32,000 nt of DNA from an uncultured bacterium (lineage in GTDB: Bacteria; GCA-001730085): contig CAZMGY010000030.1 of assembly GCA_964565945.1 (NCBI GenBank), forward strand, positions 56,381 through 88,380, in the 5' to 3' direction. Both the position numbers and the translations under genes were made by a program. The notes under the pieces are model-generated. The model had not been told where the DNA came from. It ran no database searches and saw nothing but the letters and a program-made list of their open reading frames with translations. Below, in pieces: positions 4,684-30,056 of this stretch (the first letter of the stretch is position 1; the number at the start of each line of letters is the position of its first letter).

Positions 4684-4685
4684 AA

Positions 4686-10099: not shown

Positions 10100-10173
10100 T
10101 TTTGGTCTCTCCTTTTTTTTACACAAAACGAATCAATCACCTTTTCCCTAAGTTCTTTGAGGCTCTAGGCCTC

Positions 10174-10632
10174 CTAATGTTTTCTATCGTCATCCGTTCC
10201 ATCTTGACCATCTCGACCCACCGAATACAAATCAAAATAACGACCATCAACCAGTGACGCATGTTTCCGATAACGAAACGGCTGTCCCCAGGCGTCTAAG
10301 ATGTTTCCAGCATCATTCACATCTCGGCCTTTTTTGAGCTCGATGTATGGCCCACGCCAACGAGATCCCAAAGAAGCAAGCCCCAGACCTTTCGTCCCGT
10401 GAACTAAGGCCCACAAAGTAAGCGAATCGGGATAAACACCCATATCCACTTTGTAAAGTTTAAGCGCCAAAGCCAGCGAGGCCAATTGAGCCTCCGTCTT
10501 AGCTTCAAACGCACGGTTACGAGAGGTTCGCAAGGACGGCAAAGCTATACTTGCCAAAATCACCATCACCGAAATGACTGTTAACACCTCTAGTAAGGTA
10601 AATCCTCGTCTACTCATCTCCCTGATCCCCAT
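10174..10632 (-). CDS. gspG: type II secretion major pseudopilin GspG
   Basis: Prepilin leader and methylation site MSRRG|FTLLEVLTVISVMVILASIALP. The C-terminus DAWGQPFRYR...FDLYSVGRDGQDGTDDD matches the GspG calcium-loop pattern. The start is either ATG 10632 or ATG 10617. Confidence 0.85.
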   Translation of the reverse strand: MGIREMSRRGFTLLEVLTVISVMVILASIALPSLRTSRNRAFEAKTEAQLASLALALKLYKVDMGVYPDSLTLWALVHGTKGLGLASLGSRWRGPYIELKKGRDVNDAGNILDAWGQPFRYRKHASLVDGRYFDLYSVGRDGQDGTDDDRKH

Positions 10633-10697
10633 TCTATCATAAAGTAATTTTATTTTACAATAAGATTTTAAAGCTCTAAATAAATCACCTGTTCAAA

Positions 10698-10709
10698 GAA
10701 TTATAATTC
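10698..10709. promoter_or_regulatory. perfect 12-bp palindrome GAATTATAATTC (TATAAT on both strands) upstream of gspG
   Basis: Read directly from the sequence. It lies in the 98-nt gap between the NHL gene stop (10731) and the gspG start. The minus-strand TATAAT is at 10705-10700 and has only a weak -35 (GTTACC). Confidence 0.3.
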
Positions 10710-10730
10710 AGGACAAATCCTCGGTAACGT

Positions 10731-12215: not shown

Positions 12216-13035
12216 TTTGAGACATACTTTTGTTTAATAACAGCTGCGTCCTCTTACATAAAGCCCTGTTGAGCCTATAATCGGCTGGCGCAATAAAGTC
12301 AACTCGTTGCGCATTTAGTAACTCTTTGCACTTCTTAAGCTGCTTGGATGTATTAGGCTTATACACCGCAATCGCATAACCACCATTATTTTTAGTGACC
12401 GTCATACTCGGCACATCGGTCAGGCCATCTCCAATATAGATAATCTGCGAAAAAGGTATCGGGCGCTCATCTTCGGGCATGTAATCGTTCACATTTTCAT
12501 GAATGCCTTCGCGCCCCTTATTGATCCTAAAAATATATTGGGTTTTTTCGGTTCCTGTGATCAAAATATTGGGAAAACGCGCTGCATCGTGATGATCAAA
12601 ATAATAGGCCGACGCATAAATTCGTTCGAAATGATGTTTAATATCGATCCCCTCTAATATTTCCTTCATGCCTGCCGAAATGATATAGTGTTTAACATTG
12701 ATGTGCCCATCGCTTTTGACATGAACATAATCATTGATCTGATCGAACCATTCTTTCACCCCATCAAAATATTTAATATTTTGAGCCATCGCCGCAAAAT
12801 CTTCAGGAGCAATGTGTTCTTCATTTTTTTCGGCATACTTAATTAGCAAGCGCATATAGGTCAACATTTCATCGGCATCCTCTTTGAGAGCCTCCTTCGA
12901 CACTTCTTCCCAAAACTCCTTGGGATTAATCCCCATCTTCGGCAATACGGTGTACTCTTGCATCGGCTGAGGAGACAAGGTGCCATCAAAATCATAGATC
13001 ATTGCAATGGTGTTTTTGGTGTAGTTCAGCCCCAT
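12169..13035 (-). CDS. HAD-superfamily hydrolase (PSPase-like subfamily IB)
   Basis: Motif I MIYDFDGTLSP, motif II IISAGM and motif IV YIGDGLTDVP. The ORF-track start at 13047 is TTG. ATG 13035 or ATG 13002 is more likely. The 3' end overlaps the NHL gene start by 47 nt. Confidence 0.75.
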   Translation of the reverse strand: MGLNYTKNTIAMIYDFDGTLSPQPMQEYTVLPKMGINPKEFWEEVSKEALKEDADEMLTYMRLLIKYAEKNEEHIAPEDFAAMAQNIKYFDGVKEWFDQINDYVHVKSDGHINVKHYIISAGMKEILEGIDIKHHFERIYASAYYFDHHDAARFPNILITGTEKTQYIFRINKGREGIHENVNDYMPEDERPIPFSQIIYIGDGLTDVPSMTVTKNNGGYAIAVYKPNTSKQLKKCKELLNAQRVDFIAPADYRLNRALCKRTQLLLNKSMSQIEYQREKFSCERSYQ

Positions 13036-13379
13036 AGTTGATCCCAAGTCTCTTCCTTAAAACCAACGGTCCCTTTGACACCATCAAGCACAAACGGTCT
13101 TTTGATCAGATTACCATTGGACGCCAAAAGCTCCAAAGCTTGTTGTTCACTCATATCGGGCAATTGATCTTTAATACCCAAAGCACGGTAGTCTTGCCCA
13201 GATGTATTGAATATTTTTTTCAATTCCCCCACTTGAGCTAACATCGTTTGCAATTCTTGAATTGAAGGAGGTATTTCGCGAATCATGATATATTGGTAGG
13301 GAATCCCTTTACTATCTAAATATTTTTGAGCTTTTCGACAGATTCCACACTTGTTGTAACCATACACTTTAAGAGCCAT
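13026..13379 (-). CDS. ArsC/Spx-family protein (YffB-like)
   Basis: The pattern MALKVYGYNKCGICRKAQKYLDSKGIPYQYI...LIKRPFVL is typical of the ArsC family. The ORF-track start at 13397 is GTG. The ATG at 13379 lies 2 nt after the upstream stop. Confidence 0.75.
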   Translation of the reverse strand: MALKVYGYNKCGICRKAQKYLDSKGIPYQYIMIREIPPSIQELQTMLAQVGELKKIFNTSGQDYRALGIKDQLPDMSEQQALELLASNGNLIKRPFVLDGVKGTVGFKEETWDQLWG

Positions 13380-13381
13380 AC

Positions 13382-13936
13382 TTAAGATTCCTTCCACTTA
13401 ATAGAACAGCCCATTGAAGGGAAAGGTTTCACAGTGATCACCTCTCCTTGAAGCAGTTGCTTGATTGCATCTTTCAATTCTTCTTGGGTCACATGACTTT
13501 CATCCTTCCAGTTATCATCCATGCGGCCATGAAAAACAAGCTTTTTGTCGGCATCAAACAAATATAGATCTGGTGTGCACTGAGCCTTAAATGCTCTCGC
13601 CACCTCTTGCGTCGCATCAATCAAATAAGGAAAAGGAATTTGCCACTCTTCTATTTTTTGCAACATTTGATCGGAGGAATCTTCGGGATAATTCGGATGA
13701 ATGTTAGGATTAATCGCCACGGTTTGAATCCGTTGAGGTATCGCCCAATGAGCTAAACGAATCAAACGGGACCATATCGCCAAAGCATAAGGACAATGAT
13801 TGCAGGTAAACACCACCAAAAGTCCTTTAGATCCCACCAAACGTTCCGAAAAATACTCCTGTCCGTGGGGATCTTGCAACGAAAAAGGCGGTAAAAGTGT
13901 CCCTAAATCAATATCGATGGACTCAACCAAGGCCAT
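13382..13936 (-). CDS. thioredoxin-fold thiol-disulfide oxidoreductase (AhpC/TSA-redoxin-like)
   Basis: VVFTCNHCPY active-site motif, TPDLYLFD, and C-terminal GCSIKW. The ORF-track start at 13945 is GTG. The first ATG is at 13936 (MALVESIDIDLG). Confidence 0.8.
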   Translation of the reverse strand: MALVESIDIDLGTLLPPFSLQDPHGQEYFSERLVGSKGLLVVFTCNHCPYALAIWSRLIRLAHWAIPQRIQTVAINPNIHPNYPEDSSDQMLQKIEEWQIPFPYLIDATQEVARAFKAQCTPDLYLFDADKKLVFHGRMDDNWKDESHVTQEELKDAIKQLLQGEVITVKPFPSMGCSIKWKES

Positions 13937-14006
13937 ATGCAACACCCTTCTTATTATTTTTATCCAAATTCAGAAGGATATTATACTCTAAAATAAATAA
14001 CTTTTC

Positions 14007-14035
14007 TTGTAAGGATATAACCTGATCCATAGACT
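14007..14035 (+). promoter_or_regulatory. candidate promoter for the small plus-strand ORF
   Basis: TTGTAA (14007-14012), a 17-nt spacer, then TAGACT (14030-14035), 52 nt upstream of ATG 14087. Sequence pattern only. Confidence 0.35.
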
Positions 14036-14086
14036 CATTAGGGTACATGTAGTAAAGAAAAAACCAACATAGAGGAGATTGTAACG

Positions 14087-14233
14087 ATGAAAAAATTAAC
14101 AATTGCCATGATGTTTGCTATCGCACTGAGCGTTTCCAGCCAATTATGGGCTGGTTCTGGATGTTGCGGTGGTGATTCACCAAGCAGTGGTAGGGACAAC
14201 AGAGGTCCTTTATTAGGTTCTTATCCGTGCTAA
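14087..14233 (+). CDS. small (48 aa) Cys-rich secreted peptide or lipoprotein candidate
   Basis: Absent from the ORF track because it is under 60 aa. My own translation is MKKLTIAMMFAIALSVSSQLWAGSGCCGGDSPSSGRDNRGPLLGSYPC followed by a stop. GAGGAG lies 9 nt upstream of the ATG. The N-terminus looks like a signal peptide (KK, then a hydrophobic core). This is the only plus-strand gene candidate in the window. Confidence 0.45.
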   Translation: MKKLTIAMMFAIALSVSSQLWAGSGCCGGDSPSSGRDNRGPLLGSYPC

Positions 14234-14234
14234 T

Positions 14235-14882
14235 CTAGAATCGACTGAGATGTGCCACTAGGGTATCTGAAAGTTTTTGCGCAAGCTGAGGTAGGGATTT
14301 AAAAAAATCCTCCTTAGCTTGTGCATCGGCACAATCGCCGACCGCTTTAATCACCATACAAGTTAACTGAAAATCTGTACAAACCTGAACAATTCCAAAG
14401 GCTTCCATATCAACAACGTGAGCCAACAGAGCCAACTTCTTTTTATCATCCTCATTCTCAATGGGTCGATCAACTGTCACCAAAGATAAAGGCATCAAAT
14501 CTGCCCAAGGCCCTTCATTAACCGCTAAAGCCTTGTGGTCATCTTCGAATGACTCTCGCAAGTCAACATCTAACACGGTGTCAATTTGGACCACATCCCC
14601 AAGCAACAAATCATCAAGCAAGGTACCCGCTAAACCAGCATTAATAACATAACGGGGCTTGTAATGAATTAAAAGATAGCACATTGCCACTTCGGCAGCC
14701 ACTTTTCCCATACCACTGATCATACAAACAGCTTTGTGCTCCGAATTAGGCAAAGAAAACCCATAAATAGGAAAGGGTTCCTCTATCCAAATCTCGGTCT
14801 CCAAAGATTTTAAAAATGGTTTGCCTTCCGCCTTGGTGGCAAAAACAATCGCTAACACTACCTCTTGTCGCATATCATCCAT
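14235..14882 (-). CDS. MTA/SAH nucleosidase-family (PNP_UDP_1) hydrolase; Pfs or futalosine hydrolase type
   Basis: ISGMGKVAAEVAMCYLLIHYKPRYVINAGLAGTL and VDMEAFGIVQVC...AVGDCAD align with my recollection of E. coli Pfs (SGIGKVAA...IINTGSAGGL; VEMEATAIAHVC...AISDVAD). The acidic catalytic positions are retained. The ORF-track start at 14891 is TTG. ATGs occur at 14882 and 14873. Confidence 0.7.
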   Translation of the reverse strand: MDDMRQEVVLAIVFATKAEGKPFLKSLETEIWIEEPFPIYGFSLPNSEHKAVCMISGMGKVAAEVAMCYLLIHYKPRYVINAGLAGTLLDDLLLGDVVQIDTVLDVDLRESFEDDHKALAVNEGPWADLMPLSLVTVDRPIENEDDKKKLALLAHVVDMEAFGIVQVCTDFQLTCMVIKAVGDCADAQAKEDFFKSLPQLAQKLSDTLVAHLSRF

Positions 14883-14943
14883 ATGACACAATATGTTCCC
14901 TACCTAAGTCCCTCCCAGGATCATTAAAAATTACTTTCACGCC

Positions 14944-15163
14944 TTATGATAAGTAGGCATTTTTCTCCTCCAACGGCTTAAAATTTAATATCTTATCACG
15001 ATAGTACTCATACGGCTTTATTCTCGCCTCTAGCTCCTCTTCTAATTTGGTGAACCTATCTTAGATGGTTGAGACAACTTTTTTATTTAGCAATTCCTGA
15101 ATACTTTTAAACTCCACCCCATTCGAGCAATACTGCACTATCAGTGCCATCAATTTTGCTCAT
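14944..15163 (-). pseudogene. hsdS: decayed fragment of a type I restriction-modification specificity subunit (hsdS C-terminal region)
   Basis: The minus strand reads MSKIDGTDSAVLLEWGGV-stop. After a +1 shift it reads EFKSIQELLNKKVVSTI-TAA(15061-15063)-DRFTKLEEELEARIKPYEYYRDKILNFKPLEEKNAYLS-stop. The block ..ILD(K/R)F..L....E.R.K.YEYYRDK(L/I)L.F is the conserved HsdS C-terminal helix as I recall it. No target-recognition domain, hsdM or hsdR is present. Confidence 0.5.
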
Positions 15164-15177
15164 GCTATAACCTCGTC

Positions 15178-15209
15178 ATTCTGCGCGACACAAAGCAAAA
15201 TCGCAGAAT
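15178..15209. repeat. inverted repeat ATTCTGCG-(16 nt)-CGCAGAAT
   Basis: Perfect 8-bp arms at 15178-15185 and 15202-15209, read directly. The arms are related to those of the neighbouring palindrome at 15230-15251. Confidence 0.6.
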
Positions 15210-15229
15210 CTATTGACTTTTATTTATGG

Positions 15230-15251
15230 ATTCCGCAACTGCATGCGGAAT
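15230..15251. repeat. inverted repeat ATTCCGCA-(ACTGCA)-TGCGGAAT, hairpin 30 nt past the AsmA-like gene stop
   Basis: Perfect 8-bp arms at 15230-15237 and 15244-15251 with a 6-nt loop. No U tract follows on the minus strand, so it is not a canonical intrinsic terminator. Confidence 0.6.
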
Positions 15252-15281
15252 GACAATGTACTTTCATGGCTACAATATCTT

Positions 15282-16337
15282 CTACCTCGCAAACACAATC
15301 TTGCTTTTCACACCGTCCTTATCCTTACTTGGAGTCAACACTTTTCGTTTAAATTCTCGTTTGAATTCCTCAACAATCAGAGACAGATTATCTACAATTG
15401 TGCCTTGAGGCGGTTGATCAATAATAAAATTCAACTCCACCTGCCCCCGTTTTTCCATAAGATACGTTTGCATTTGTTTAAGTCTAACAGTTTGCCTTAA
15501 AAGTTCGACATCAACATCTTCGAGCTGAGACATCATCTGAACCCTTAACGAGTCTTTAAGCTTCTGAGTTAACATCGACATCGAGAAAAACCCTTTTAAA
15601 ATCTTGGAATTTTGCTTCGAATTCAAATAGGCATCCACTTGAGACAAGTCCAAATGATTTACTTTAAAGTGCCCCCAAAGCTTTTTTTCCGACAATATAA
15701 AAAAAGACAAATGAAAGTCCTTAACCAAATCATTTAAACCATAACCATAAGCTTCGACCCGAACTAAGGCATCGGTGTTTTCTAGATCAACTTGGCTAAT
15801 GCCAACATAATCCGCATGCAAACTGATATCAATAATACGATCATTCAACCTATCTTTCACATAGACTTGAAAATTCCTCATCTGCAACGAATCAAAATAG
15901 TCTCCCCTAAAAACCGAAGGTTGCTGCCACAAGCCAACAATATCGGTAAATAAGCCCGTTAGAAAGTCGGGAGAACGTTCGATGTTTTGTTTGCGCAAAT
16001 GTCTGTTATCAAATTCGAGTCGAACATCCCTGCACTCGATTCTCGAAAACTTGATACGCCTTTCCACAAAAAAGCTCCATAATGATAATTCGCTCCTAAC
16101 ATGATCAATCTCCAAAAGCACACTTTTTTCATTATTGAGTTTCAAGCTTTCAATACGAATAACACCAGGCAAAATCCCAAACTTAATTCGGTCAACATCT
16201 AAACTTATTTGAGTGTTATCATTCAAAAAAGCATACAACTCCTGAGTGATCCACTTCGCCATAGACACCCGAATTGCGATGGGAACACAAAGAACCAAAA
16301 TAAAACCTAAACTACATAAAACTGGAAAACGTTTCAT
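15282..16337 (-). CDS. single-pass membrane protein with AsmA-like N-terminal region
   Basis: 351-aa ORF. It has an N-terminal anchor MKRFPVLCSLGFILVLCVPIAI. This is followed by ISLDVDRIKFGILPGVIRIESLKLNN..., which resembles the AsmA/DUF748 pattern G.I.L.L.P.L.L..V.L.N. The rest is beta-rich. It is the last gene of the pseudopilin operon. Confidence 0.45.
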   Translation of the reverse strand: MKRFPVLCSLGFILVLCVPIAIRVSMAKWITQELYAFLNDNTQISLDVDRIKFGILPGVIRIESLKLNNEKSVLLEIDHVRSELSLWSFFVERRIKFSRIECRDVRLEFDNRHLRKQNIERSPDFLTGLFTDIVGLWQQPSVFRGDYFDSLQMRNFQVYVKDRLNDRIIDISLHADYVGISQVDLENTDALVRVEAYGYGLNDLVKDFHLSFFILSEKKLWGHFKVNHLDLSQVDAYLNSKQNSKILKGFFSMSMLTQKLKDSLRVQMMSQLEDVDVELLRQTVRLKQMQTYLMEKRGQVELNFIIDQPPQGTIVDNLSLIVEEFKREFKRKVLTPSKDKDGVKSKIVFAR

Positions 16338-16339
16338 GG

Positions 16340-17212
16340 TTAATTTTCATATCCTTCAGACCACGACAGAGGCGTAAAGTCTAGTAAGTCATAAGCCTTT
16401 TGAGATTTTAAGTGAACATTACCTATACGAGGCAAGTTCTCGGGGTCGTCATGACGCGAGGCTTTTATCAAATATTGAGAATCAAACCCATAATGTTGCG
16501 CAATTTTTTCACCCATTTCATACAAACTAACAGCCCTTGGCCCACCCAAATGATACAACCCTTGAACTTTTAAGTTCAACAAATGATGTAAGCCGCGTGC
16601 TAAACACACCGTATTTATTCCCGATCTCAACTCATCGTGAAACAGTGTCATCGGTTTGTTTTGCCCCAGCCTCTTCGCAATCAAGTCCACCGCCCCCTTA
16701 TACCCCTGTAAAGAAGGCCCCATCGGCAACCCAATACGCACAATACCATAAGATGGGCGCTTCTGCACCAAGTCTTCCGCCATAAGATACGTTTTCCCAA
16801 TCACACTTATGGGATCTGGGCTAATATTTTCACAGTAGCCCTCATCGGGCTGTCCAACTCCTGAATAAACTAAATCTGCACTTATATAAAAAATATAAGC
16901 CGACGGTGCCGCATCTAAAATCATTTGAGTACCTAAAACGTTTCTCTCGTAAGCCCTATCAGGACACTTCTCTCCCAAGTCTAAATCGCACATTCCGGCC
17001 GCATGAACAATCATTGTGGGATCTATATCTTCAAGAATCTTGCAAAACGTATCAGGGTCACTCATAGAACAAGGGTAAACATAAGAGGCAGAAAAATAAC
17101 AGGCACTTTTGGGAGGCACAATCCCAATCACTTGGCCGGGATAGCTCTGTTCTAGCAGTTGAAACAGAGGCCAACCATGCATGGAAGAAATACCTGTTAT
17201 AATAATTTTCAT
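16340..17212 (-). CDS. RmlD-like (dTDP-4-dehydrorhamnose reductase fold) extended-SDR protein, catalytic triad apparently substituted
   Basis: 290-aa ORF whose ATG overlaps the stop of the GspK-like gene (ATGA at 17209-17212). MKIIITGISSMHG, IVHAAG, SADLVYSG, ISVIGKTYLMAE and GLYHLGG align to RfbD/RmlD as I recall it (GKTGQVG, VNAAA, STDYVF, NVYGKTKLAGE, GLYHL). Confidence 0.7.
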   Translation of the reverse strand: MKIIITGISSMHGWPLFQLLEQSYPGQVIGIVPPKSACYFSASYVYPCSMSDPDTFCKILEDIDPTMIVHAAGMCDLDLGEKCPDRAYERNVLGTQMILDAAPSAYIFYISADLVYSGVGQPDEGYCENISPDPISVIGKTYLMAEDLVQKRPSYGIVRIGLPMGPSLQGYKGAVDLIAKRLGQNKPMTLFHDELRSGINTVCLARGLHHLLNLKVQGLYHLGGPRAVSLYEMGEKIAQHYGFDSQYLIKASRHDDPENLPRIGNVHLKSQKAYDLLDFTPLSWSEGYEN

Positions 17213-19116
17213 AAACGCCTCACTTGTTGGGCTAACACTTTAGGAAAGGGTTTGCTCTTAAGTTTACTTTGATTGAAGTCCAAAGCCACCTCTACATCGG
17301 CATTCAACTGATAACCTGTATTGTTGTAAACACCTGTAACTTGAACATGAAAAAAGTGGCTTCTCACATCAATCAGATCATAAAGATTCCAAAAAACCTG
17401 ATCCACCTTCTCATTCGATAACTTTTGTTTAAGGGGCAAAATAATATCATAGATATTCTGAAACCCCTTAACATCCTTTTGATGAGAGAAATGTTGTTTA
17501 CGGTAGGCCACAATATGTTCCGCCAGGGGACGATCTATTCCAGGCAGAGACGCCAATACAAAGGCTGAAGATGTATTAATATTGATACGACCCGCCTGAC
17601 GATGTTTAAAAGTTTGATTCACCCCATCAATAACGTCAAAGTAATCGTCCTGATGATGCTCATCTACAAAAAACAGCTGCTTCAAGATAATTAAATCTTC
17701 AATTTCATTAGAATCTAACACACCATTCTGATTGGCATCCTGAACGTCACTGGCTTTTACTTTCAAAAAACTCCAAGGCCCATCGCCTTTGTAGACATAA
17801 GGCAAAAAACCAAGAGGAGACCTACCTAAAGAAAGGTCTTTGCGTCGCACAAACATTCGTTGTTGATCGGCAAACACACTTGCTTCTAAGGCTTGACCAT
17901 AGTTCTCATTAAGAGCTCCAGGGGAAAATCCTTGACTGTAATTATCAGCATGAGCCGATCGAGGATCATCCTTAATCAAACTTTGATCTAAATCGACATC
18001 CAAATTTAAATCAAACACACTCACAAGATTATCTTTCACAAGACTCACCACACCGCGATTGATTTCGAAGTTGGGCACCTCGTGGATCACATCAACATTC
18101 ACATGATCCAGAAACTGCAAGCGTTTGGTATGATCGGTGATTAAAAGAAAAGAACGCGCTGCCAAAATTAAACTTGGTAAGTTGACTGATTCTCTTCCCG
18201 AAGCTTTGGATTCCCACTCTAAGCGATAACCTTCTAATTTGATCTCTTCGGAGTAAGGGTTAAAAATTTCAACAAACTCTCCTCCATGACTATGGGCAAA
18301 ACTGTACATACGTGCCGGATTGACAAAATTCGCGGTATGATAGCGAACTTCGTTGATCAAAGGACGCACTTCATCTCCATACAAAGTCAAACCCACACCC
18401 ATACCGATTTGAAAAAGGGACTCATCGCCATCGACATAATCAATCAAGTTTGCCAAAACCTGATAGGCCTCATCCTCATTGTCGAACAGCTTGACAAATT
18501 CTCTTTCATGATGGATCGTGATCGACTTATCTTGCAAACTCCATACGTTCAATTTGGGCAATCCCTGATCGGTGTAGTTCACTCGAGAACTTACCCAAGT
18601 AACATTTTTATTCAACACATTGAGCCAAGTTGCTTTATTATTAGTCACAAAGCGTCCCCACTCTTGCCTTATTTGAAAAGGAATTGATAATGCCATCCTA
18701 CGGTCAAAAATTTCTTGCTCCCAAGTCACAGGTCTATCAAAATCACCTTTCTTACGCATATAATCAAAAACATCTTGTGCATAAAGCCCCCATGGCGCTT
18801 GATTTACATTCATATAACTCGCTAAATCATCCACACGAACATGAAAAAGCCCTTCCTTGTCCCATTCAAACCAATCCTGATCATGCGACACAAGAGACAT
18901 CGGTTCATTCTCGAAATGATCCTTTATTTTTGACAAGGCCAACGCCATCCCCGATTCGGCATTCATTTTAGCTTTCAATCGATCTTCAACGGGGTTCCCA
19001 TACTCCGTTTGCAACGAAACAAACCGCACAAAAGTAATCCCAACACTCAAAAGAACCAACAAAAGCCCTAACACAAGAATAAGAGCCACCCCACGTTGGC
19101 CGTGAATCATCTTCAT
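17209..19116 (-). CDS. gspK: GspK-like minor pseudopilin, double-sized, with lamin-tail-domain-like insert and EF-hand loop
   Basis: N-terminus GQRGVALILVLGLLLVLLSVG has no Glu at +5, as in GspK. The C-terminus GRININTSSAFVLASLPGIDRPLAEHIVAYRK is the GspK helix-hairpin-helix pattern. The middle (residues about 251-375) reads LINEV...GGEFVEIFNPYSEEIKLEGYRLE...LPSLILAARSFLLI, which looks like an LTD. DANQNGVLDSNE (17704-17739) fits the EF-hand loop. Confidence 0.7.
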   Translation of the reverse strand: MKMIHGQRGVALILVLGLLLVLLSVGITFVRFVSLQTEYGNPVEDRLKAKMNAESGMALALSKIKDHFENEPMSLVSHDQDWFEWDKEGLFHVRVDDLASYMNVNQAPWGLYAQDVFDYMRKKGDFDRPVTWEQEIFDRRMALSIPFQIRQEWGRFVTNNKATWLNVLNKNVTWVSSRVNYTDQGLPKLNVWSLQDKSITIHHEREFVKLFDNEDEAYQVLANLIDYVDGDESLFQIGMGVGLTLYGDEVRPLINEVRYHTANFVNPARMYSFAHSHGGEFVEIFNPYSEEIKLEGYRLEWESKASGRESVNLPSLILAARSFLLITDHTKRLQFLDHVNVDVIHEVPNFEINRGVVSLVKDNLVSVFDLNLDVDLDQSLIKDDPRSAHADNYSQGFSPGALNENYGQALEASVFADQQRMFVRRKDLSLGRSPLGFLPYVYKGDGPWSFLKVKASDVQDANQNGVLDSNEIEDLIILKQLFFVDEHHQDDYFDVIDGVNQTFKHRQAGRININTSSAFVLASLPGIDRPLAEHIVAYRKQHFSHQKDVKGFQNIYDIILPLKQKLSNEKVDQVFWNLYDLIDVRSHFFHVQVTGVYNNTGYQLNADVEVALDFNQSKLKSKPFPKVLAQQVRRL

Positions 19117-19736
19117 AAATTAGGCCCTTTCAACTTGTGCAAATAGCGCTGCTTCTCTTGCCCGTCAAAATAATCAATCACCAAAGCAATTTCATTCAAA
19201 GGTCCAGGGGGCAAACTTTTTAAACCGTTAAGCATTATTTGCATTTGTGTCACTTGGGCACCATTTCTTAGATGATCGGTTAGATTTGATCGATTAAGAT
19301 AATCGTAATTTCTAAGGTCTTGCTCTGTTGGTTGAAAATGGACAGGTCGCAATTGTCTCTCAACCCGTCCTTCGAACAAACGATATTCGACATAATACAA
19401 ACCATCATCCAAAGGATGGGCTTTCTCGGGATCTACGGTGCGTGAAATCAAAAAAGCCAATCGTTCATCGGGCGTCAAACGTATACGATCATAACCTGGC
19501 AAAAAAGTCTTATTGATTAAGGAAGCATCCAAGTCCTCGGATAATTCTTGAAACAGCCAAGCTTGTTGTTCGTAGATCAATTGGCGATCGATTTTTTGTG
19601 TCACGGCGCGGTGTGTTTGTAGGTATATGTTGTAAGCAAAATAAAACAACAAAACCACAATCAATGTGACAATAATCATTTCCATAAGAGTGAAAGCTCG
19701 TTTAGATATAGCTTTCAACGGTATAAACATGTTCAT
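19113..19736 (-). CDS. minor pseudopilin (GspJ-like by position and size)
   Basis: Class-III signal ...KAISKRA|FTLMEMIIVTLIVVLLFYFAY, with Ala rather than Gly at -1 and Glu at +5. The ORF-track start at 19751 is TTG. ATGs occur at 19736 and 19730. The stop overlaps the gspK-like ATG (19113-19116). Confidence 0.6.
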   Translation of the reverse strand: MNMFIPLKAISKRAFTLMEMIIVTLIVVLLFYFAYNIYLQTHRAVTQKIDRQLIYEQQAWLFQELSEDLDASLINKTFLPGYDRIRLTPDERLAFLISRTVDPEKAHPLDDGLYYVEYRLFEGRVERQLRPVHFQPTEQDLRNYDYLNRSNLTDHLRNGAQVTQMQIMLNGLKSLPPGPLNEIALVIDYFDGQEKQRYLHKLKGPNL

Positions 19737-20148
19737 AAGAAGCTCTATCAATAAGTTTAACCTTTAACACTAATTCTCCTTGAACATCCTCAAAGGCTGC
19801 CTCATAATCAATTGCCATCAAGGGCTTCTCTTTAAAACCAACATCTAAAGGATCTAACACAAATAGCCCCTCCTGAACTAAAGAGTTATCGATAGCATAG
19901 TGCGCATGCTGCTTCCAAAATTGATCGGTAAAATACTCTTTTCCTTCTCGCACATAGGCATCACGAATCCCATTCCTTAAAGACTGAGCTATCATTACAA
20001 GATATACATCCTTAGATGTTCTTTGCAAAGACATCACGCCCTGAGGAAATAAGGGGAAAACAGCCATAACCCCCACAAGAAAAACGGTCATCGCCACGGT
20101 CACTTCTAGCAATGTAAACCCTTTAGAGTCTCGAAACAAATATTTCAT
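19702..20148 (-). CDS. minor pseudopilin (GspI-like by position and size)
   Basis: MKYLFRDSKG|FTLLEVTVAMTVFLVGVMAVFPL is a canonical prepilin cleavage/methylation motif. The protein is 148 aa. Confidence 0.6.
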   Translation of the reverse strand: MKYLFRDSKGFTLLEVTVAMTVFLVGVMAVFPLFPQGVMSLQRTSKDVYLVMIAQSLRNGIRDAYVREGKEYFTDQFWKQHAHYAIDNSLVQEGLFVLDPLDVGFKEKPLMAIDYEAAFEDVQGELVLKVKLIDRASYEHVYTVESYI

Positions 20149-20151
20149 GCA

Positions 20152-20754
20152 TTAGTCCTGAAGTTCAATTCGATTATTTTTAGCATCGATCAAAATTGAA
20201 GAGGGTTCGCCTTCAATCAAAATAGGCACTTTATCAACAGTACCTTTCAAAGGAAATATAATACGCCCAGATATAGATTTAAACCGAACCGCAGGTAATA
20301 TGGTAGAAAAGTAACTCAACGAAACATCTTTAATATCCACTTTAATCCTTTGTGTTTTTTGCGCTTGGTCATTATCGATGAATAAGTCTTGCTGACTTCG
20401 AAACATGGCATCTTGTGGTAACAAAAGCCACTCGCTATCCAAGTGAAAGCGACCTTGCTTTTCTTTAACAATCGCTAAGGCTCGTCCAGGAAGTTGATCT
20501 CTTCTTTGAAAATAAGCCGTCGCTTTCACAAAACGATCGTCATGAGAAGGAACAAAAACAACATAGTGGTCCTGAGAGCTCGTCTGAGCTTGCTTCTGTG
20601 CCATGTACAAAATAGTTTTCACCCAATTAATGGCATCGCTACCTTGACGTTTCGATTTATAATCAAAAAAACGTGGCAAAATAAAGCTGGAAAAGAGCCC
20701 CATAAAAAAAATCACCAAAAGAACTTCAATAAGGCTAACACCTTTGCGACTCAT
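20152..20754 (-). CDS. minor pseudopilin (GspH/FimU-like by position and size)
   Basis: MSRKG|VSLIEVLLVIFFMGLFSSFILP, with Glu at +5. The protein is 200 aa. The ATG overlaps the TPR gene stop (ATGA at 20751-20754). Confidence 0.6.
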   Translation of the reverse strand: MSRKGVSLIEVLLVIFFMGLFSSFILPRFFDYKSKRQGSDAINWVKTILYMAQKQAQTSSQDHYVVFVPSHDDRFVKATAYFQRRDQLPGRALAIVKEKQGRFHLDSEWLLLPQDAMFRSQQDLFIDNDQAQKTQRIKVDIKDVSLSYFSTILPAVRFKSISGRIIFPLKGTVDKVPILIEGEPSSILIDAKNNRIELQD

Positions 20755-22670
20755 AGATCCCTTCCCTTTCTTTTTTGACGAAGAACACCCTTCATTTCCT
20801 TAGCAATCGCAGTATACTTGGGATTCTTCATACTTACAATCTCATTGTATACGGTTTGAGCAGCATCATATTGAACAAGCTTTTCAAAACAGCGTGCCAC
20901 CCCCAATTTAGTTTTAAAATACATATCTTCCGTTTTGAATCGCGACATACGGGTCTGAACATTAATATAAATATTCAAGGCTTCTGTCCACAAAGATTGG
21001 TGAAACAAAACATCCGCCAACGCCAACATTGATGAAATAATAATAGGCCCTTCATGACCATACATGCTTTGCTTAAAATATTCCTCTGCCCGCATCCAAT
21101 CTTTCATTCCTCCATAAGCTTGACCAAGCAAATAAGCCATGTTTTGTTTAAGAATTAAAACATCCTCATCAAAAATCAAGGGTTCTAAAGTGTCAATCAC
21201 CCGGAGATAACGACCCTGTTGAATATAAATATCCATTTTACTCAAAAGGGCCTCGCGAAATACTTCATTATGGGGCTCAATAAAATCCAAATACTCCAGA
21301 GCTTTATTGCGTAAACCCTCATTTAAATAGATATGCGCTAACTGGTAATGGGCATCTCCGACCAAATCACTTTCGGGATAATGTTCGATAATTTGACCCA
21401 AAGACCCTTTTTTCTTGTCGTAATCACCCTTAAGCGCATAATAGTCCGCAATCCATAAAAGAACATCAGCAATAAGAGGGTCTTGTGGATACAACTTGAT
21501 CATTTGATCAAAAACCTGTATCCCCTCCTTAATTTTACCAAGACGAATATAAGACCAAGCTTGATAATAATAGACCCGAGATGACTTGCGTGGAAAAAGA
21601 TCCGCCACTGTTTTAAAAAGCTGAATAGCCATTTTGTAATTCGCTAAATTGTAATAGCTTAAGCCAAAAAAAACATAGGCTTCGGCCGTTAAAGAATCTT
21701 TTTGCGAATAGTCCATCACCTCCCAAATGGCAATTGATTCGGCATACTGCTTTTCATAAAAAAAAGACAAGGCTTTTTGGTGATCAATATCTTTTCTCTC
21801 TTCCGCACTCAGTTCAAAGATGTCCTGATAAACGGCTAAAGCCTGTCTCGCCTGAGAATAATCCTGTAATTTCATATAAATCTGGACTTTTTCATACAAA
21901 GCTCTGCGATACCAAATAGACGTTTTATCCACACCCTTCGTCATCTTTTCTGTAATCAGGAGAGTTTCTCGAAAACGTAACATTCCCATCAAGGCCTTCA
22001 CCTTACCATACAAAACAGCTTGCTTTTGATCTTGATTTAAAGGCAAACGAAGGGCTTGATTCATCCGATCCAAGCATGCATCATACTGATCCATATGAAA
22101 ATAGCCTAAACCCGAATAATACAACGCCTGATACATTTGAAAGTCCCATTTTTCTTGAATTGATTGCGACTCTCCTTTGATTTTAGTAAGAAAAAGCTCG
22201 TAAGCCCCCACAGCACCAAGGTAATTCTTAAGCCGATACAGCGCATCACCTAAAACTTTGGCCGATTCCAAACCCCAAAAACTTTGATCGTGGTGCTTAA
22301 GCACATACTTCATATGACCCACTGTGTTGATATCGTATCCTAACAAATAGTAACTCCTCCCCATAATTACATGAATACGAGGGACAAGAGGTGAATCTGG
22401 GTAACTCTCTAACAAAATTCCACTGGTTTCAATCGCTAAGGGGTAATTTTGTTTTTGAAAATAACCATCGGCTAAGAAAAAAAGAACCGCCTCACGTTTA
22501 CGTTCTCCCAAAGAGTGGCTTAAAAAAAGCTGCCCTTGCTTAATAAGATCCTCGTATTTGCGGTCTTCGTAAAGCTGGCACACATCGGAAAATGATGCGA
22601 CGTTTTGCGCAGAAAGATTCGTTACAAAGCTCAATACCCCTAGTAAATTAATGGTAATAATACTTTTCAC
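20751..22670 (-). CDS. exported TPR-repeat protein
   Basis: 639-aa ORF with a GTG start at 22670 and GAGGGAG about 12 nt upstream. It has the signal peptide (M)KSIITINLLGVLSFVTNLSAQ. It also has many TPR-like units (Y..A...Y..G.Y..A...F) along its length. Confidence 0.75.
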   Translation of the reverse strand: MKSIITINLLGVLSFVTNLSAQNVASFSDVCQLYEDRKYEDLIKQGQLFLSHSLGERKREAVLFFLADGYFQKQNYPLAIETSGILLESYPDSPLVPRIHVIMGRSYYLLGYDINTVGHMKYVLKHHDQSFWGLESAKVLGDALYRLKNYLGAVGAYELFLTKIKGESQSIQEKWDFQMYQALYYSGLGYFHMDQYDACLDRMNQALRLPLNQDQKQAVLYGKVKALMGMLRFRETLLITEKMTKGVDKTSIWYRRALYEKVQIYMKLQDYSQARQALAVYQDIFELSAEERKDIDHQKALSFFYEKQYAESIAIWEVMDYSQKDSLTAEAYVFFGLSYYNLANYKMAIQLFKTVADLFPRKSSRVYYYQAWSYIRLGKIKEGIQVFDQMIKLYPQDPLIADVLLWIADYYALKGDYDKKKGSLGQIIEHYPESDLVGDAHYQLAHIYLNEGLRNKALEYLDFIEPHNEVFREALLSKMDIYIQQGRYLRVIDTLEPLIFDEDVLILKQNMAYLLGQAYGGMKDWMRAEEYFKQSMYGHEGPIIISSMLALADVLFHQSLWTEALNIYINVQTRMSRFKTEDMYFKTKLGVARCFEKLVQYDAAQTVYNEIVSMKNPKYTAIAKEMKGVLRQKRKGRDL

Positions 22671-22704
22671 GATACGTTTTTTGCTCCCTCTAAACGGCCT
22701 AGCC

Positions 22705-23514
22705 CTAAGCGCCTATCTTCACATGGGAAAAATGTTTTTGCAAAAGAACCGATGCGGATAAAGCCGCCAAATAACTGGTTTTAGGATTAGAAGGATCCAA
22801 ATTATTTTCGGTAAGCGCCACCATACGTCCCGCAGTACTGATCACTTCGACTTCGTGAGAGTTTTTAGTCCATTCTGGAGAGGTCAAAATACGTACCCGT
22901 GTTTGATCGGGTCCCAAACCCGCTAAACTCAATGTGGCAGCCACATTGATGTTTTTGGGGAAGGCTTTCACCGCTTCACGGGCCGTTCCTTCAAATACAC
23001 ACATCTCTTGTGTAACAGAATCCATATCAATCCCTTTGGATTCTAAATATGGCGCTCCTTTAAGCCCTTGAGGAGGTTTGCGTGTGGTTATCGTCACCGA
23101 GTGAATCTCTGCCATTTTAACGGCCGACAAAGCATCCAAACCTGCGATTGCACCAGAAGGGATATAAAGCCTTCCCTCAGATTGCTCAGCTAATTGACAA
23201 AGCTCGGGATCATCCAACAGACCTCCCACACTAACAATCATCACATCTTTAGCTTGCTCTAGCGCTTGACGAGCAATATCACAAGCCACTGTAGCTCCAG
23301 CGGCTTCAATTACAAAATCAACCTTGGGAATAAGTATCGCATAATCGGTGCAAATTTGAGCAGGTGCTTTTAAACTGTTAACTAAGGCTTCAGCTCGGTC
23401 GTAATGCTTATCACAAACAACATGTAAAGAGGCCTTGGCCAAGAGAATGGTCTCGATATCATTCGCTAACTTGCGACCAATCACACCACAACCAATCAAG
23501 CCAATCTGCGTCAA
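22705..23514 (-). CDS. nadX: L-aspartate dehydrogenase-family protein
   Basis: 269 aa. The N-terminal Rossmann motif [14 protein letters not shown], the overall length and the C-terminal pattern ([13 protein letters not shown]...[16 protein letters not shown]) are as in NadX/AspDH. The TTG start overlaps the panD stop (TTGA at 23511-23514). Confidence 0.7.
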
Positions 23515-23873
23515 GACGCTTCCCCCTCTATCGGCTTGTTCTGTTCATTCACTTGAATAATTTGAGGTTGGTATCTCGTTAATTCCTCTTCGGAATAATG
23601 GGCATAGGTGATAATAATCACAAGATCACCAGATTGAGTCAATCGCGCCGCAGCGCCGTTAATGCATATGGTTCCAGAACCACATTCGCCGATAAGCGCA
23701 TATGTTTCAAAACGAACTCCGTTGTTCACATTAACAACTTGAACTTTTTCTCCAGGCAAAATATTAGCTAATTCCAAAAGGTTCTGATCAATCGTGATCG
23801 ACCCTTCATAATTCAAATTAGCATCGGTCACAGTCGCACGATGAATCTTCGATTTAAACATATCTCGGATCAT
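23511..23873 (-). CDS. panD: aspartate 1-decarboxylase
   Basis: The sequence [29 protein letters not shown] contains the GS self-cleavage site, and [10 protein letters not shown] is also present. 120 aa. Confidence 0.95.
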
Positions 23874-23877
23874 ATCA

Positions 23878-24726
23878 TTAGATTTCTTTCACATCTATGT
23901 GGTCAATCAAACGTACTAAACCTAAGCACACCGAAACAGCCACAATCACAGCATGTTCGACACAAGACACAGGCAGTAGTGTATTATAATCGACAACTTC
24001 CAAGTAGTCTATTGTTAAACCAGGAGCCTTGTCCAACATGGCACGTCCCTTAGAAAGCACCGCATCCGCCTGAGTTTCTCCCGCAAGAATATGTTGACGC
24101 ATCTCCACCAAGGCTTGGTAGATCATCCCAGCATTTTCTCGCTGCTCGGGACTTAAATAAGCATTGCGTGAACTCATCGCCAATCCATTAGGCTCCCGAA
24201 TCGTCGGACAAACCACCACATTGACGCCCATCCTTAAATCTTGAACCATCTGTTCAATAATCCGCAGCTGCTGAAAATCTTTTTCCCCGAAATACGCCCA
24301 TGTCGGCCGAACAAGATTAAAAAAAATACTCACCACAGTGCAAACCCCTCGGAAATGACCCGGACGGGAGGCCCCGCACAAATGCTGCGCCAAAGAAGGT
24401 ACTTCCACCCAAGTTTTAAAATCTTGAGGATACACCTCTTGAGCTTCAGGACAAAAAACAACATTCACACCCAAATCAGCTAATTTGTTCATATCATCCT
24501 CAAGCAAACGAGGATAAGCATCTAAATCCTCATCAACTCCAAATTGCGTTGGGTTTACAAAGAGACTGCCCACAGTCACATCTGCCTGAGACAACGACCT
24601 GCGCATAAGACTTAAATGACCTTCATGCAAAGCCCCCATCGTTGGCACAAAACCGACGCTTTGCCCCTGACCTCTCTTGGATTGGCTCCATAATTGAATA
24701 TCTTCAACTGATTCGATTATTTTCAT
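23878..24726 (-). CDS. panC: pantoate--beta-alanine ligase
   Basis: [18 protein letters not shown] (HIGH-type motif), FVNPTQFG and FGEKDFQQL. The ORF-track start at 24744 is TTG. I prefer ATG 24726 ([13 protein letters not shown]). Confidence 0.95.
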
Positions 24727-24784
24727 AGAAATCCATTGTATCAAAAGTTACGCAAAATTGAAAAACAGGGAACGTTTGGCTATT

Positions 24785-26980
24785 TTATAGGAGATTAAGC
24801 AAAGCCTCTTCGGAAGATACGGGTCGTTCACACTGGTGATCGCGGCAAACATAAACTTGGACTCCCTCTTCGGGAATAGGAAATTGATCAACAAAAGGAA
24901 CAAATTTCGACAAGTTCTTATCCTGTTTAATCCGATAGAGAATCACCATCCGAGGATCATAAGTGCAATCAACCACGTTTTTCATGGCGATGTAAGCTTC
25001 ATTCACTTCGGGTGCCACATAAACAAGTTCCCGGCTTGGCCCTATCGCGATATCCATCGCCATAAGCATTTGAGTAGTGCTAAAGGGCCCTTGTTTCAAT
25101 TCTTTGGCAAAGTAATTGAAAATTTTAAGAACCTTATCCTCAAAATACCCATGTCCTGTCAAACGGGCTAAACGAATCAGATTATAGGCAGCCACGGCGT
25201 TTCCCGAAGGAAGAGCGCCATCATAGGCCTCTTTTTGCTTTAAAACCAAATCTTTTGTTTCAAACGATGCATTGTAAAAAACCCCTTCGGGAGATTGAAA
25301 CAGCCTCAGCATCTGCTCATTCCAATGCAAAGCTTCTTGTAAATACTTGCTTTGAGCTGTCGCCATGTACAGTTCAATCAGACCACTCACAAAAAAAGCA
25401 TAATCATCAAGCATTCCAGGGATGATTTTGTGACCTTGGCGGTAACGATGCCACAGCTGACCTTGTTCATTAACCATTTGATCCAAAACAAACTGCGCCG
25501 CTCGCTCGGCCACCACAATCCAGCGATCATCTTGCAAAGTACGTCCCACATAGGCCATCGTAGCTATCATAAGACCATTCCAATCGGTCAAAATTTTGTC
25601 ATCGCGCAAAGGTCTGAGACGTTTCTCTCGGCGCTTAAAGAGCTTTATTTTTGCTTTTTTCAAAATGCGCCCTATCTTATCCACTTCTTTCTGAAACAAA
25701 GTAGCCAAGTTTTGATCACTGCGTACACGATGCAAAATATTCCACCCAACAAATTCACCCTGCGCATCAACCTTAACATTACCTTGAGATTGAACATCAT
25801 AGGCGGCTTTAAAGACAGCGGCTTCAATTGTACTCAAATGAGTATCGATTTCGACCTCTTGCCAAATGTAAAAGGCACCTTCTTTTTTGTGGACGGCCTC
25901 CTCACGCTCGTAACTATCAGCATCCTCGGCACTGTAGAAACCACCCTGAATGTCGGTCATATCACGAGCAATGTACTCTAAGGTTTCCAAAGCTTTATCT
26001 TTGTAATAGTCCTTCCGCGTGATCAAGTAGGTATCGGCTAAGGCTTTAATGTAAAGCGCTTGGTCGTACAACATTTTTTCAAAATGCGGCACATGCCACT
26101 GCTCATCGGTGGCATAGCGATGAATTCCACCCCCAAGATGATCATAAAGGCCACCGTCACTCATCGCAACAAGAGTCTCTTCCACCATTCGCAAAGCATC
26201 GGCATCCCCACCGCGGCTGTGCATCGCCAAAAGAAAGGACAAGGTGTGTGATTGAGGAAACTTCGGGGCTTCGCTAAAGCCTCCATATTGTTCGTCAAAA
26301 CGTTGCTGAATATCGCGTTTGGCCCAAAGCAGGTGATTATTGTCCCAAGAAATCTCTTGGTCGCGATTTTCGTTTTGCGTCACATCAATCACAGTTAACA
26401 AACGTTCACTGCTATCTTCGATTTCTCCCCGCTTTTCGGTCCACGCTACATGCAACTGCTTAAGGATGTTCAAAAATCCTGGACGCCCCCAGCGATCAGT
26501 GGGAGGAAAATAGGTTCCTCCATAAAAAGGTTTTTTTTCGGGCGTTAGAAACACCGATAGGGGCCACCCTCCTTGACTGGTCATTGCCTGAACCACATGC
26601 ATGTACAAGCTATCAATATCGGGCCGCTCTTCGCGATCTAACTTGATCGACACAAAGTGCTTATTCAAATAGACAGCAATCGTTTCATTTTCAAACGATT
26701 CTCGCTCCATCACATGACACCAATGGCATGTGGCATAACCAATCGACAAAAAAATAGGCTTATCTTCTTCGCGCGCTTTGGCAAAGGCTTCGTCTCCCCA
26801 TGGATACCAATCAACGGGATTATAAGCATGCTGCAACAGGTAAGGACTCTGCTCTTTGGCCAAACGATTAGCTTTGAATTTTCCTTGAACTGACTGCTGA
26901 AAAGATACACTCATCACAACTCCTATCATCAAGGTCCATACATATCTACGGATTCCCTGCCAACTCCCCCAAGCACACAT
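24785..26980 (-). CDS. thioredoxin-domain protein of the YyaL/DUF255 (SPATA20-like) family, with an N-terminal hydrophobic extension
   Basis: The signature is [29 protein letters not shown]...[17 protein letters not shown] long alpha/alpha-toroid-like C-terminal region follows. The first 33 aa ([33 protein letters not shown]) look like a signal or anchor. Confidence 0.85.
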
Positions 26981-26987
26981 AAGAGCC

Positions 26988-28019
26988 TTAATCCCCCAAA
27001 AGTATAGCCGCCCAACGGGTTTCGTCTTGTGCCTCTAACGCAACTTTGATTGTCATTGTCAACGGAATCGATAAGACCATACCCATAGGTCCCAAAATCC
27101 AACCCCAAAAGATCAAGGACATAAACACCACCAAAGTCGACAAACCTAGTCCTTTGCCCATCCACCTCGGCTCAACCACATTAGCCATTACAAAGTTAAT
27201 AAGGACATAGCCAATCAAAATCACAATAGCTTGATGCCAGCTATACTGAACCATCGCCAAAATAATCGGCGGAACAGACGCTATAACAGACCCTATATTT
27301 GGAATATAATTAAGTAAAAAGGCTACCAACCCCCATAAAACAGGGTAGTCAAGCCCAACCCACAGCACTACGATATAAGCCAACACACCTGTGATAAAAC
27401 TCACCAAAGTCTTAATACCTATGTAGTGCCGCACCCCCTGCACAAACTTATGATAAGGCTCTAACAATGCATTATGCGATTTCGATATTCTTTTGATCTT
27501 TAAGGGAAAGCTCGAAGCCTCAAGCAAAATAAAAGTCGCGATAATAAAAATTAAAAGACCATTGGCTAAAGCATTACCAACACCATTCAACATCCTCGAT
27601 GTAAACTTCATCACCGAACCAACATTAAGCATTTTACTTAAACTCACTTGCGCGGTCTCGAAACCCCATTCCACCAATTTTTCATCAATATTGACCATTT
27701 GTTGACGAAACTGAGCTTCATAGGTCGGCACATTATCAGAAAAACCTTGCACCGAAGCACCAATCAATCCCGCAAGCGCCACTCCACCTAAAAAGATGAG
27801 CAACACAACTAAGCCAAAAGCCAATCCTTGTGGACAACCTTTCTCTTGTAACCAAAACATCGGCGACGCAAAAACAACAGCAATAAACACCGCAAACAAA
27901 AAAGGAACTAAAATCGTCTTTGCGGCCATCATTCCAGCCATAATGATAATCACAGCAGCTGTCGTTAAAAATATCATCGACGTTCGATACAGGGGTTGAA
28001 AACTCGCTCCACCCATCAT
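26988..28019 (-). CDS. AI-2E family transporter (PerM/YhhT-like permease)
   Basis: 343 aa and polytopic, with the conserved block [20 protein letters not shown] and the C-terminal PLTMTIKV. Confidence 0.85.
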
Positions 28020-28021
28020 GG

Positions 28022-30049
<2,028 letters not shown>

Positions 30050-30056
30050 CTATGAA

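Follow-up and report, generated by a model that had tools for sequence, protein, structure and literature searches.

The DNA analyzed here, a 32-kb stretch (the window) of contig CAZMGY010000030.1 from an uncultured bacterium, contains at 15282-22670 a group of seven closely packed minus-strand open reading frames (ORFs). They encode an exported tetratricopeptide repeat (TPR) protein, four proteins with prepilin-type N termini (referred to below as H-, I-, J-, and K-like), an RmlD-like short-chain dehydrogenase/reductase (SDR), and an AsmA-like protein with a single transmembrane (TM) segment (Table 1). Coordinates refer to the whole window, and L numbers denote fetched comparison loci or contigs. 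The genes overlap by ATGA stop/start motifs at 20751-20754 (TPR/H), 19113-19116 (J/K), and 17209-17212 (K/SDR), and the gaps from the TPR gene to the AsmA-like gene were −4, +3, −50, −4, −4, and +2 nucleotides (nt); the I/J overlap becomes −35 nt if the J-like gene starts at its ATG codon, as gene callers chose. The seven ORFs, the three overlaps, and the N-terminal motifs had all been given correctly in the initial annotation, which was made from the sequence alone. The G+C content of the window was 42%, and all real genes in the 32 kb were on the minus strand.

Table 1. Coordinates of the seven-gene cluster, of two domains of the K-like protein, and of the distal gspG gene in the 32-kb window
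Feature	Position	Strand	Remarks
Exported TPR-repeat protein	20751..22670	-	639 amino acids (aa), GTG start
H-like pilin-class protein 1	20152..20754	-	200 aa, MSRKG/VSLIEV
I-like pilin-class protein 2	19702..20148	-	148 aa, DSKG/FTLLEV
J-like pilin-class protein 3	19113..19751	-	212 aa from TTG, or 207 aa from ATG at 19736; SKRA/FTLMEM
K-like GspK-family minor pseudopilin	17209..19116	-	635 aa, GQRG/VALIL, no Glu5
Lamin-tail (Ig-like beta-sandwich) insertion in K-like protein	17917..18411	-	About aa 236-400, core GGEFxEIxNPY
GspK-type helix-hairpin-helix motif in K-like protein	17443..17595	-	aa 508-558, G-R-ININT-S…LPG
Cytoplasmic RmlD-like extended SDR	16340..17212	-	290 aa, noncanonical active site
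Single-TM AsmA-like (beta-taco/repeating-beta-groove) protein	15282..16337	-	351 aa, candidate GspN analog
Major pseudopilin GspG	10174..10632	-	152 aa, separate unit 4.6 kb downstream of the seven-gene cluster

A six-frame motif scan of the window detected Glu5-type prepilin N termini in the H-, I-, and J-like proteins and in the distal GspG only; the K-like protein had the same leader as the other three, without Glu5. Four consecutive ORFs with prepilin leaders cannot be a product of chance, and the predicted class III signal and hydrophobic helix that define the type IV pilin class were found in the cluster.

The K-like protein matched the NF037980 model of GspK at an E value of 7e-16 (58.6 bits, curated cutoff 130) and the Pfam family T2SSK at 7e-4 (20.3 bits, cutoff 24.2); although significant, both matches fell short of the curated cutoffs. 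The HHH_3 family was matched at 1.4e-7, and the Pfam lamin-tail domain (LTD) was matched weakly (1.3e-4). Among 10 members of the K family, NF037980 was matched by all 10, LTD by 9 (best, 9e-13), and T2SSK by 8, and the family profile found the GspK chain 5vtm_X at the helix-hairpin-helix (HHH) motif. In the 10-sequence alignment, the hallmarks of GspK were retained, namely, an N-terminal helix without Glu5 and a D97…N103 motif; columns G509 and N512-T515 of the HHH motif were invariant, and the lamin-tail core was conserved, with G279, E283, N286, and P287 among its columns. The top Protein Data Bank (PDB) match of the AlphaFold2 model (pLDDT, 74; pTM, 0.70) in a Foldseek search was Pseudomonas aeruginosa XcpX/GspK (5vtm_X; E = 4e-4), followed by 9a1f_T, 6utu_C, and the GspK protein of enterotoxigenic Escherichia coli (ETEC; 3ci0_K); other matches were the immunoglobulin (Ig)-like tail domains of lamins A/C and B1. 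The predicted structure combined the features of GspK, i.e., a helix without Glu5 and a pilin fold into which an alpha/HHH domain is inserted. As judged from models and predicted structure, the K-like protein is a GspK-family cap protein in which an Ig-like lamin tail is inserted in the helical domain.

These properties recall the GspH-I-J-K tip of type II secretion systems (T2SS), known from ETEC GspIJK (3CI0) and P. aeruginosa XcpUVWX (5VTM/6UTU). There, too, four prepilin-type genes of similar sizes are consecutive, and the last protein lacks Glu5 and has the GspK N-terminal motifs and HHH domain. Unlike T2SS GspK proteins, however, the K-like protein is twice as long and has the lamin-tail Ig domain in its alpha-domain, and the cluster is detached from gspC-G and gspL-O. 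When used as the query in a word-index homology search, the K-like protein retrieved nothing but itself; exhaustive HMMER searching yielded only three closely related full-length proteins (identities of 39, 39, and 32%) plus a few more divergent proteins that share this architecture. A scan of JGI metagenomes with a four-member K alignment gave no match, and no description of LTD-bearing pseudopilins was found in the searchable literature.

The other three pilin-class proteins were recognizable at their N termini. The I-like protein passed the cutoffs of Pfam N_methyl (29.6 bits; cutoff, 21.2) and TIGR02532 (23.3 bits; cutoff, 16.3), and the J-like protein passed that of TIGR02532 (18.4 bits); the H-like protein scored below the pilin-class cutoffs, yet it has the KG/VSLIEV motif with Glu5. 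Matches to more specific families (GspH, PilV, GspI, ComG, and Verru_Chthon cassette proteins B and C) were all below threshold and confined to the N-terminal helix. They included GspH for the H-like protein (1.8e-5; 24.8 bits; cutoff, 80), which likewise matched ComGD below threshold, and PilV (5e-6) and GspI (8e-4) for the I-like protein. PDB and hhalign matches of the H-like protein spanned residues 1-67 only, and lineage profiles of the three proteins searched against PDB sequences matched pilin N termini, with no match to a globular domain. When compared by hhalign with GspG to GspK of E. coli and plasmid pO157, they aligned over 20 to 66 N-terminal residues, and G, H, I, and J were not told apart; for the I-like protein, GspI and GspJ were not discriminated. 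Because the family-specific matches stop at the N-terminal helix, the labels H, I, and J rest on gene order, size, and the class III signal. The proposal of an H-I-J-K-like set of minor pseudopilins was therefore upheld for K, by models and structure, while no pseudopilin-specific model was reached by the other three. Relative to T2SS tips, their globular domains were unrecognizable by sequence, and the J-like protein is unusual in having Ala at position −1, a residue shared by its ortholog in L090; the L006 ortholog has Gly.

The presence of a major pseudopilin gene in a separate downstream unit, as first annotated, was confirmed: GspG matched T2SSG at 4.8e-16, TIGR01710 at 6.7e-23 (81.2 bits, just under the cutoff of 88.85), and E. 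coli GspG in a phmmer search at 1.9e-12. Machinery genes were sought in phmmer searches, in which the Gsp proteins of E. coli K-12 were compared with every ORF of approximately 90 fetched loci. As had been noted before, none for GspE, GspF, GspD, or GspO was found in the 32 kb, nor was any found in the 10 kb beyond its left end, which contained housekeeping genes; no C-like genes were found in the window, and on the right-hand side the contigs stop within a 641-aa ORF. Distant relatives of the K-like protein had such genes nearby. In Planctomycetota, Poribacteria, and Armatimonadota, K-like genes were located in operons of the order E-F-G-…-K-…-D, where K and D are separated by L-like (PilM-type) and M-like genes. 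In “Candidatus Sumerlaeota” (L009, L011, and L080), an LTD-bearing K gene followed genes for two GspE/PilB-like ATPases, a short PilT-like ATPase, and GspF and preceded five tandem GspG-like pilin genes. Since distant relatives occur in E/F/G(/D) operons, the K-like family belongs to type IV filament machines.

Precedents exist for minor-pilin cassettes that are not encoded together with the ATPase, the platform, and the secretin. The P. aeruginosa operon fimU-pilVWXY1E is detached from its machinery, an arrangement typical of type IVa pili (T4aP). The gsp genes of Acinetobacter are likewise dispersed (in Acinetobacter baumannii, gspN is located with gspC and gspD), and the same holds for the Verru_Chthon pilin cassette (TIGR02598-02600), whose proteins A, B, and C were matched weakly from this cluster. 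The present cassette differs from those described in its LTD insertion and in its partner genes, which encode a large exported TPR protein, an atypical SDR, and a short AsmA-like protein.

The AsmA-like protein, encoded by the 3′-terminal gene of the cluster, matched YhdP (2e-4), DUF748 (3.7e-4), and TIGR04411 GspN_Lepto (0.0077), in each case below threshold. Its family comprised three clusters, and all three members matched the YhdP and DUF748 models over the N-terminal ~275 model residues (best, 1.1e-8 and 34 bits; cutoffs, 46 to 50). The only significant PDB matches of its predicted structure in Foldseek were the N termini of Vps13 and Atg2 and the protein LPD-3, all with the repeating-beta-groove (RBG) lipid-transfer fold; since the model was of low confidence, the identity of these matches was used and the TM-scores were set aside. 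An mBio study of 2025 (PMC12802150) showed that GspN has a predicted AsmA-like beta-taco structure and that T2SS-dependent surface lipoproteins require it. This bears out the statement, made with the original AsmA-like assignment, that GspN belongs to the AsmA-like clan; the assignment itself was supported by the fold search. Because GspN has recently been shown to have the same fold, the AsmA-like protein is no foreign element here; encoded last in a pseudopilin operon, it would be a partner of a familiar kind without being a GspN member by sequence. Like GspN/PulN/EpsN (PMC12802150), it has a predicted N-terminal membrane anchor and a beta-rich AsmA-like/RBG fold signal and is encoded last, after the pseudopilins. 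Unlike GspN, it lacks a PF01203 match, scores far below the TIGR04411 cutoff, is ~100 aa longer than is typical, follows an SDR gene instead of gspM, and is nearer to the N termini of YhdP and DUF748. The choice of GspN references required care: EtpN/EptN of pO157 (L100:12995-13711) matched Pfam Peptidase_A24 and A24_N_bact and is no GspN homolog. As etpN encodes a prepilin peptidase by Pfam, it was rejected as a reference, and the hhalign result obtained with it was discarded as meaningless.

The SDR matched the broad Pfam domain RmlD_sub_bind at 1.5e-29 and scored 91.8 bits against the RmlD equivalog model TIGR01214, far from the cutoff of 224. Its best PDB sequence matches were MAT2B and RmlD, with which it shares the extended-SDR fold. 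Alignment to these structures placed A112, I138, and Y142 at the positions of the Thr-Tyr-Lys triad, and the cofactor motif is TGISSMHGWP instead of GxxGxxG. The absence of the catalytic triad had been noted initially; the substitutions proved real and were near-invariant among ~120 homologs from many phyla (44 to 53% identity), including Tectimicrobiota, Acidobacteriota, Planctomycetota, and Chitinivibrionales. Because these cross-phylum homologs are not beside pilins, the substitutions are no adaptation to this operon. In contrast to RmlD and MAT2B, the proteins form a separate subfamily, covered by no curated family and defined by the motifs TG-I/V-TS-I/L-HGWP, H-AG-CDLD, S-A/T-DLVFSG, V/I-GKT-Y/F, and GLPMG. 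This widespread, uncharacterized family probably still functions as an enzyme, with a rebuilt active site. A pilin or AsmA-like neighbor of the SDR gene was absent from all five contexts seen outside the lineage (L007, L008, L099, L101, and L102). No signal peptide was found in the SDR, which hence cannot belong to a periplasmic tip. It is best seen as a neighbor of uncertain relevance, embedded beside pilins only in this lineage, and not as a structural part of the filament. A role in pilin glycosylation was considered and appears unlikely, with no glycosyltransferase or other sugar gene nearby and with the SDR family standing alone elsewhere. The next gene downstream of the cluster (14235-14891) encodes a protein resembling 5′-methylthioadenosine/S-adenosylhomocysteine nucleosidases (PNP_UDP_1), below threshold for MtnN and futalosine hydrolase. 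MAT2B is the regulatory subunit of methionine adenosyltransferase, and the two genes together could reflect a link to the S-adenosylmethionine cycle or a coincidence.

The TPR protein has a Sec-type signal peptide ending LSA/QN and matched many generic TPR families in Pfam (TPR_6, 2.6e-21); its matches to YbgF/CpoB, PorW, BamD, and PilW were all below the cutoffs. The suggestion that it acts as a pilotin was not borne out, as it has no lipobox Cys and scored 19.5 against a cutoff of 154 for TIGR02521, the model for pilotins of the PilF/PilW/TadD type. It was 40% identical to the product of the gene at the same position in L006 and L090.

Five related metagenomic contigs were compared. L006 had the order panC-panD-aspDH-TPR-small pilin ORFs-K-SDR-AsmA, and L090 had the same order with ligA and a DsbH-like gene upstream, so that TPR-H-I-J-K-SDR-AsmA was retained in both at 29 to 39% K identity. 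L098 contained K-SDR-AsmA, an order kept in four of the five contigs of the lineage. In L089 (371-2964), the J gene was followed by K, and the end of K overlapped a PNP_UDP nucleosidase gene. The co-occurrence proposed for the seven genes was thus observed in two relatives, and it broke down for the SDR and AsmA-like genes in L089. The full seven-gene order occurred only in a small uncultured lineage in which the synteny of unrelated flanking genes was retained as well; among the fetched loci from outside the lineage, TPR, SDR, and AsmA partners were not found beside K-like genes, and no pseudopilin operon with such partners was found described in the searchable literature.

Spacing gave a similar picture. 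From 15282 to 31982, approximately 17 kb, the intergenic gaps were all ≤40 nt without a break, and the run extended through aspDH (aspartate dehydrogenase), panD, panC, and the genes for a DsbH-like thioredoxin and an AI-2E transporter to ligA. The arrangement indicates a compact, strongly co-oriented genome. Because the flanking housekeeping genes are as tightly spaced, a genome-wide property, tight spacing alone is no proof of one seven-gene unit; of the initial claim of a single tightly coupled unit, the overlaps are real, and the argument from spacing and conserved order applies to unrelated neighbors as well. Scans of the window for promoters, terminators, Rfam families, and tRNAs gave nothing usable for operon boundaries, with no tRNA or Rfam family in the window. 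Downstream of the cluster in L006, on the opposite strand (10110-17573), were genes for four paralogous ~155-aa secreted proteins, an 880-aa protein, a 264-aa protein with a signal peptide, and two more small secreted proteins. None of these proteins had a Pfam match, and the layout resembles a chaperone-usher or Csu-like fiber locus.

We interpret the cluster as an operon for the minor pilins, or tip, of a T2SS-like type IV filament whose genes are dispersed and whose cap has a lamin tail, with a GspN-like AsmA protein and a periplasmic TPR protein as accessories and an SDR as a neighbor, and we assign this interpretation a probability of roughly 0.55. The four pilin-class proteins would form the priming or tip set of such a filament, with the distal GspG as the major subunit, and the genes for the ATPase, platform, secretin, and peptidase would be located elsewhere in the genome. 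The K-like protein, like its counterparts in the GspI-J-K and XcpVWX tip complexes, would cap the filament, and its lamin-tail Ig domain, at the very tip, may provide a surface that contacts a ligand or cargo. The AsmA-like protein, predicted to be anchored in the inner membrane, most likely has a GspN-type accessory role in the handling of lipidated or hydrophobic cargo, as its fold and operon position suggest. The TPR protein would be a periplasmic accessory, and the SDR would be cytoplasmic, without a structural part in the filament.

Several results weigh against this interpretation. No homology of the H-, I-, and J-like globular domains to GspH, GspI, or GspJ was detectable by Pfam/NCBIfam models, PDB profile searches, or hhalign, and in the ~42 kb formed by the window and the adjoining 10 kb, genes for GspL and GspM were not found, nor were those for GspE, GspF, GspD, and GspO. 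The GspN-like role lacks a counterpart in sequence models: all three members of the AsmA-like family failed to match PF01203 T2SSN at E ≤ 10, and the AsmA-like protein scored 15.7 bits against TIGR04411 (cutoff, 50). Its AlphaFold2 model, in which long beta-hairpins come after a TM helix, was poor (pLDDT, 48.6). The SDR gene lies between K and the AsmA-like gene, and the unrelated flanking genes are as conserved in order and as tightly spaced as the cluster itself. The joint absence of the SDR and AsmA-like genes from L089 fits an independent two-gene module equally well.

Such a module, in which the SDR and the AsmA-like protein serve the envelope, e.g., in inner-membrane lipid or glycolipid handling, and are functionally unrelated to pseudopilins, having been placed beside them by a compact, syntenic genome, is a possible though somewhat unlikely alternative. 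In addition to L089, where K overlaps the PNP_UDP gene instead, it draws on the general role of AsmA-like proteins as lipid transporters, on the resemblance of this one to the N termini of YhdP and DUF748 rather than to T2SSN, and on the equally tight and syntenic housekeeping flanks. However, K and the SDR gene are translationally coupled by an ATGA overlap, and the pair follows K in four of the five lineage contigs despite 29 to 39% K divergence. In addition, the SDR family was never beside an AsmA-like gene in the contexts seen elsewhere, so the pair itself is lineage specific, and a 3′-terminal AsmA-like gene is what gspN is.

It is unlikely that the cluster is instead a minor-pilin operon of the fimU-pilVWX type for a retractile type IV pilus, with the lamin tail as a tip adhesin, and not part of a secretion pseudopilus. 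The better score of the I-like protein for PilV than for GspI would agree with a retractile pilus, as would the two PilB/GspE-like ATPases, the short PilT-like ATPase, and the five pilin genes in the LTD-bearing K operons of Sumerlaeota; so would the detachment from the machinery that is typical of T4aP minor-pilin operons. The K-like protein argues otherwise, as its HHH/T2SSK domain is specific to GspK and its model and structure matches are to GspK rather than PilX, and the sole major subunit seen is of the GspG type.

A more ambitious version of the tip-operon interpretation would make the atypical SDR and the AsmA-like protein true tip partners in this lineage. The pair, a cytoplasmic enzyme and a membrane groove, would prepare lipid- or glycolipid-linked cargo and pass it to the filament with its lamin-tail GspK cap, as an independently evolved analog of the lipoprotein export that depends on GspN, extended by a chemical step; this is improbable. 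Still more doubtful is the original proposal, according to which the seven genes make a self-contained tip or fiber module and the TPR, SDR, and AsmA-like proteins take over assembly or anchoring from GspC/L/M/N. In its favor, the seven-gene order is kept in the lineage, no L-, M-, or C-like genes were found in the window, and a GspN-like nature of the AsmA-like protein is plausible. Against it, the SDR is cytoplasmic and comes from a stand-alone cross-phylum family with no operon-specific change, it and the AsmA-like protein are absent from L089, and the TPR protein lacks a lipobox and any specific pilotin signature. Nothing shows a replacement of GspC, GspL, or GspM. Distant relatives keep L- and M-like genes beside K, and the absence of such genes from 42 kb is uninformative about other parts of this genome, where they may simply be located.

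If the interpretation as a tip operon of a T2SS-like filament is correct, a GspK cap can carry an extra Ig-like lamin-tail domain, in Sumerlaeota, TA06, and Omnitrophota as well as in this lineage, and a binding surface would thereby be placed at the filament tip, where it may bear on the recognition of cargo or substrate. Pseudopilins would also be linked, in a remote lineage, to an AsmA-like groove protein outside the GspN sequence family, a link that would broaden the finding on T2SS-dependent lipoprotein export. The locus further draws attention to a large, conserved, and uncharacterized RmlD-like subfamily with a rebuilt active site. All components are of known kinds and the organization has precedents. 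Current models are not overturned.

Other genes of the window were recorded as well. The gspG gene is flanked by genes for two proteins with Sec signals, a 202-aa CBM_11-like protein (9518-10126) and a 494-aa protein with an NHL/ScyF-like beta-propeller (10731-12215), whose N-terminal part weakly resembles the 202-aa protein (24% identity over 120 aa; E = 0.002); the two could be substrates or partners of a secretion system. The ORF at 30057-32000 (>641 aa) is open to the end of the window and had no Pfam or NCBIfam match; contigs L095 and L097, from several runs, break inside it. Internal repeats suspected there were discounted after self-BLAST found none. At 1265-5159 are genes for subunits of a pyruvate/2-oxoacid:ferredoxin oxidoreductase with CBS domains, one of them inside the thiamine pyrophosphate-binding subunit, and a separate 157-aa CBS-pair protein is encoded upstream of these subunits.

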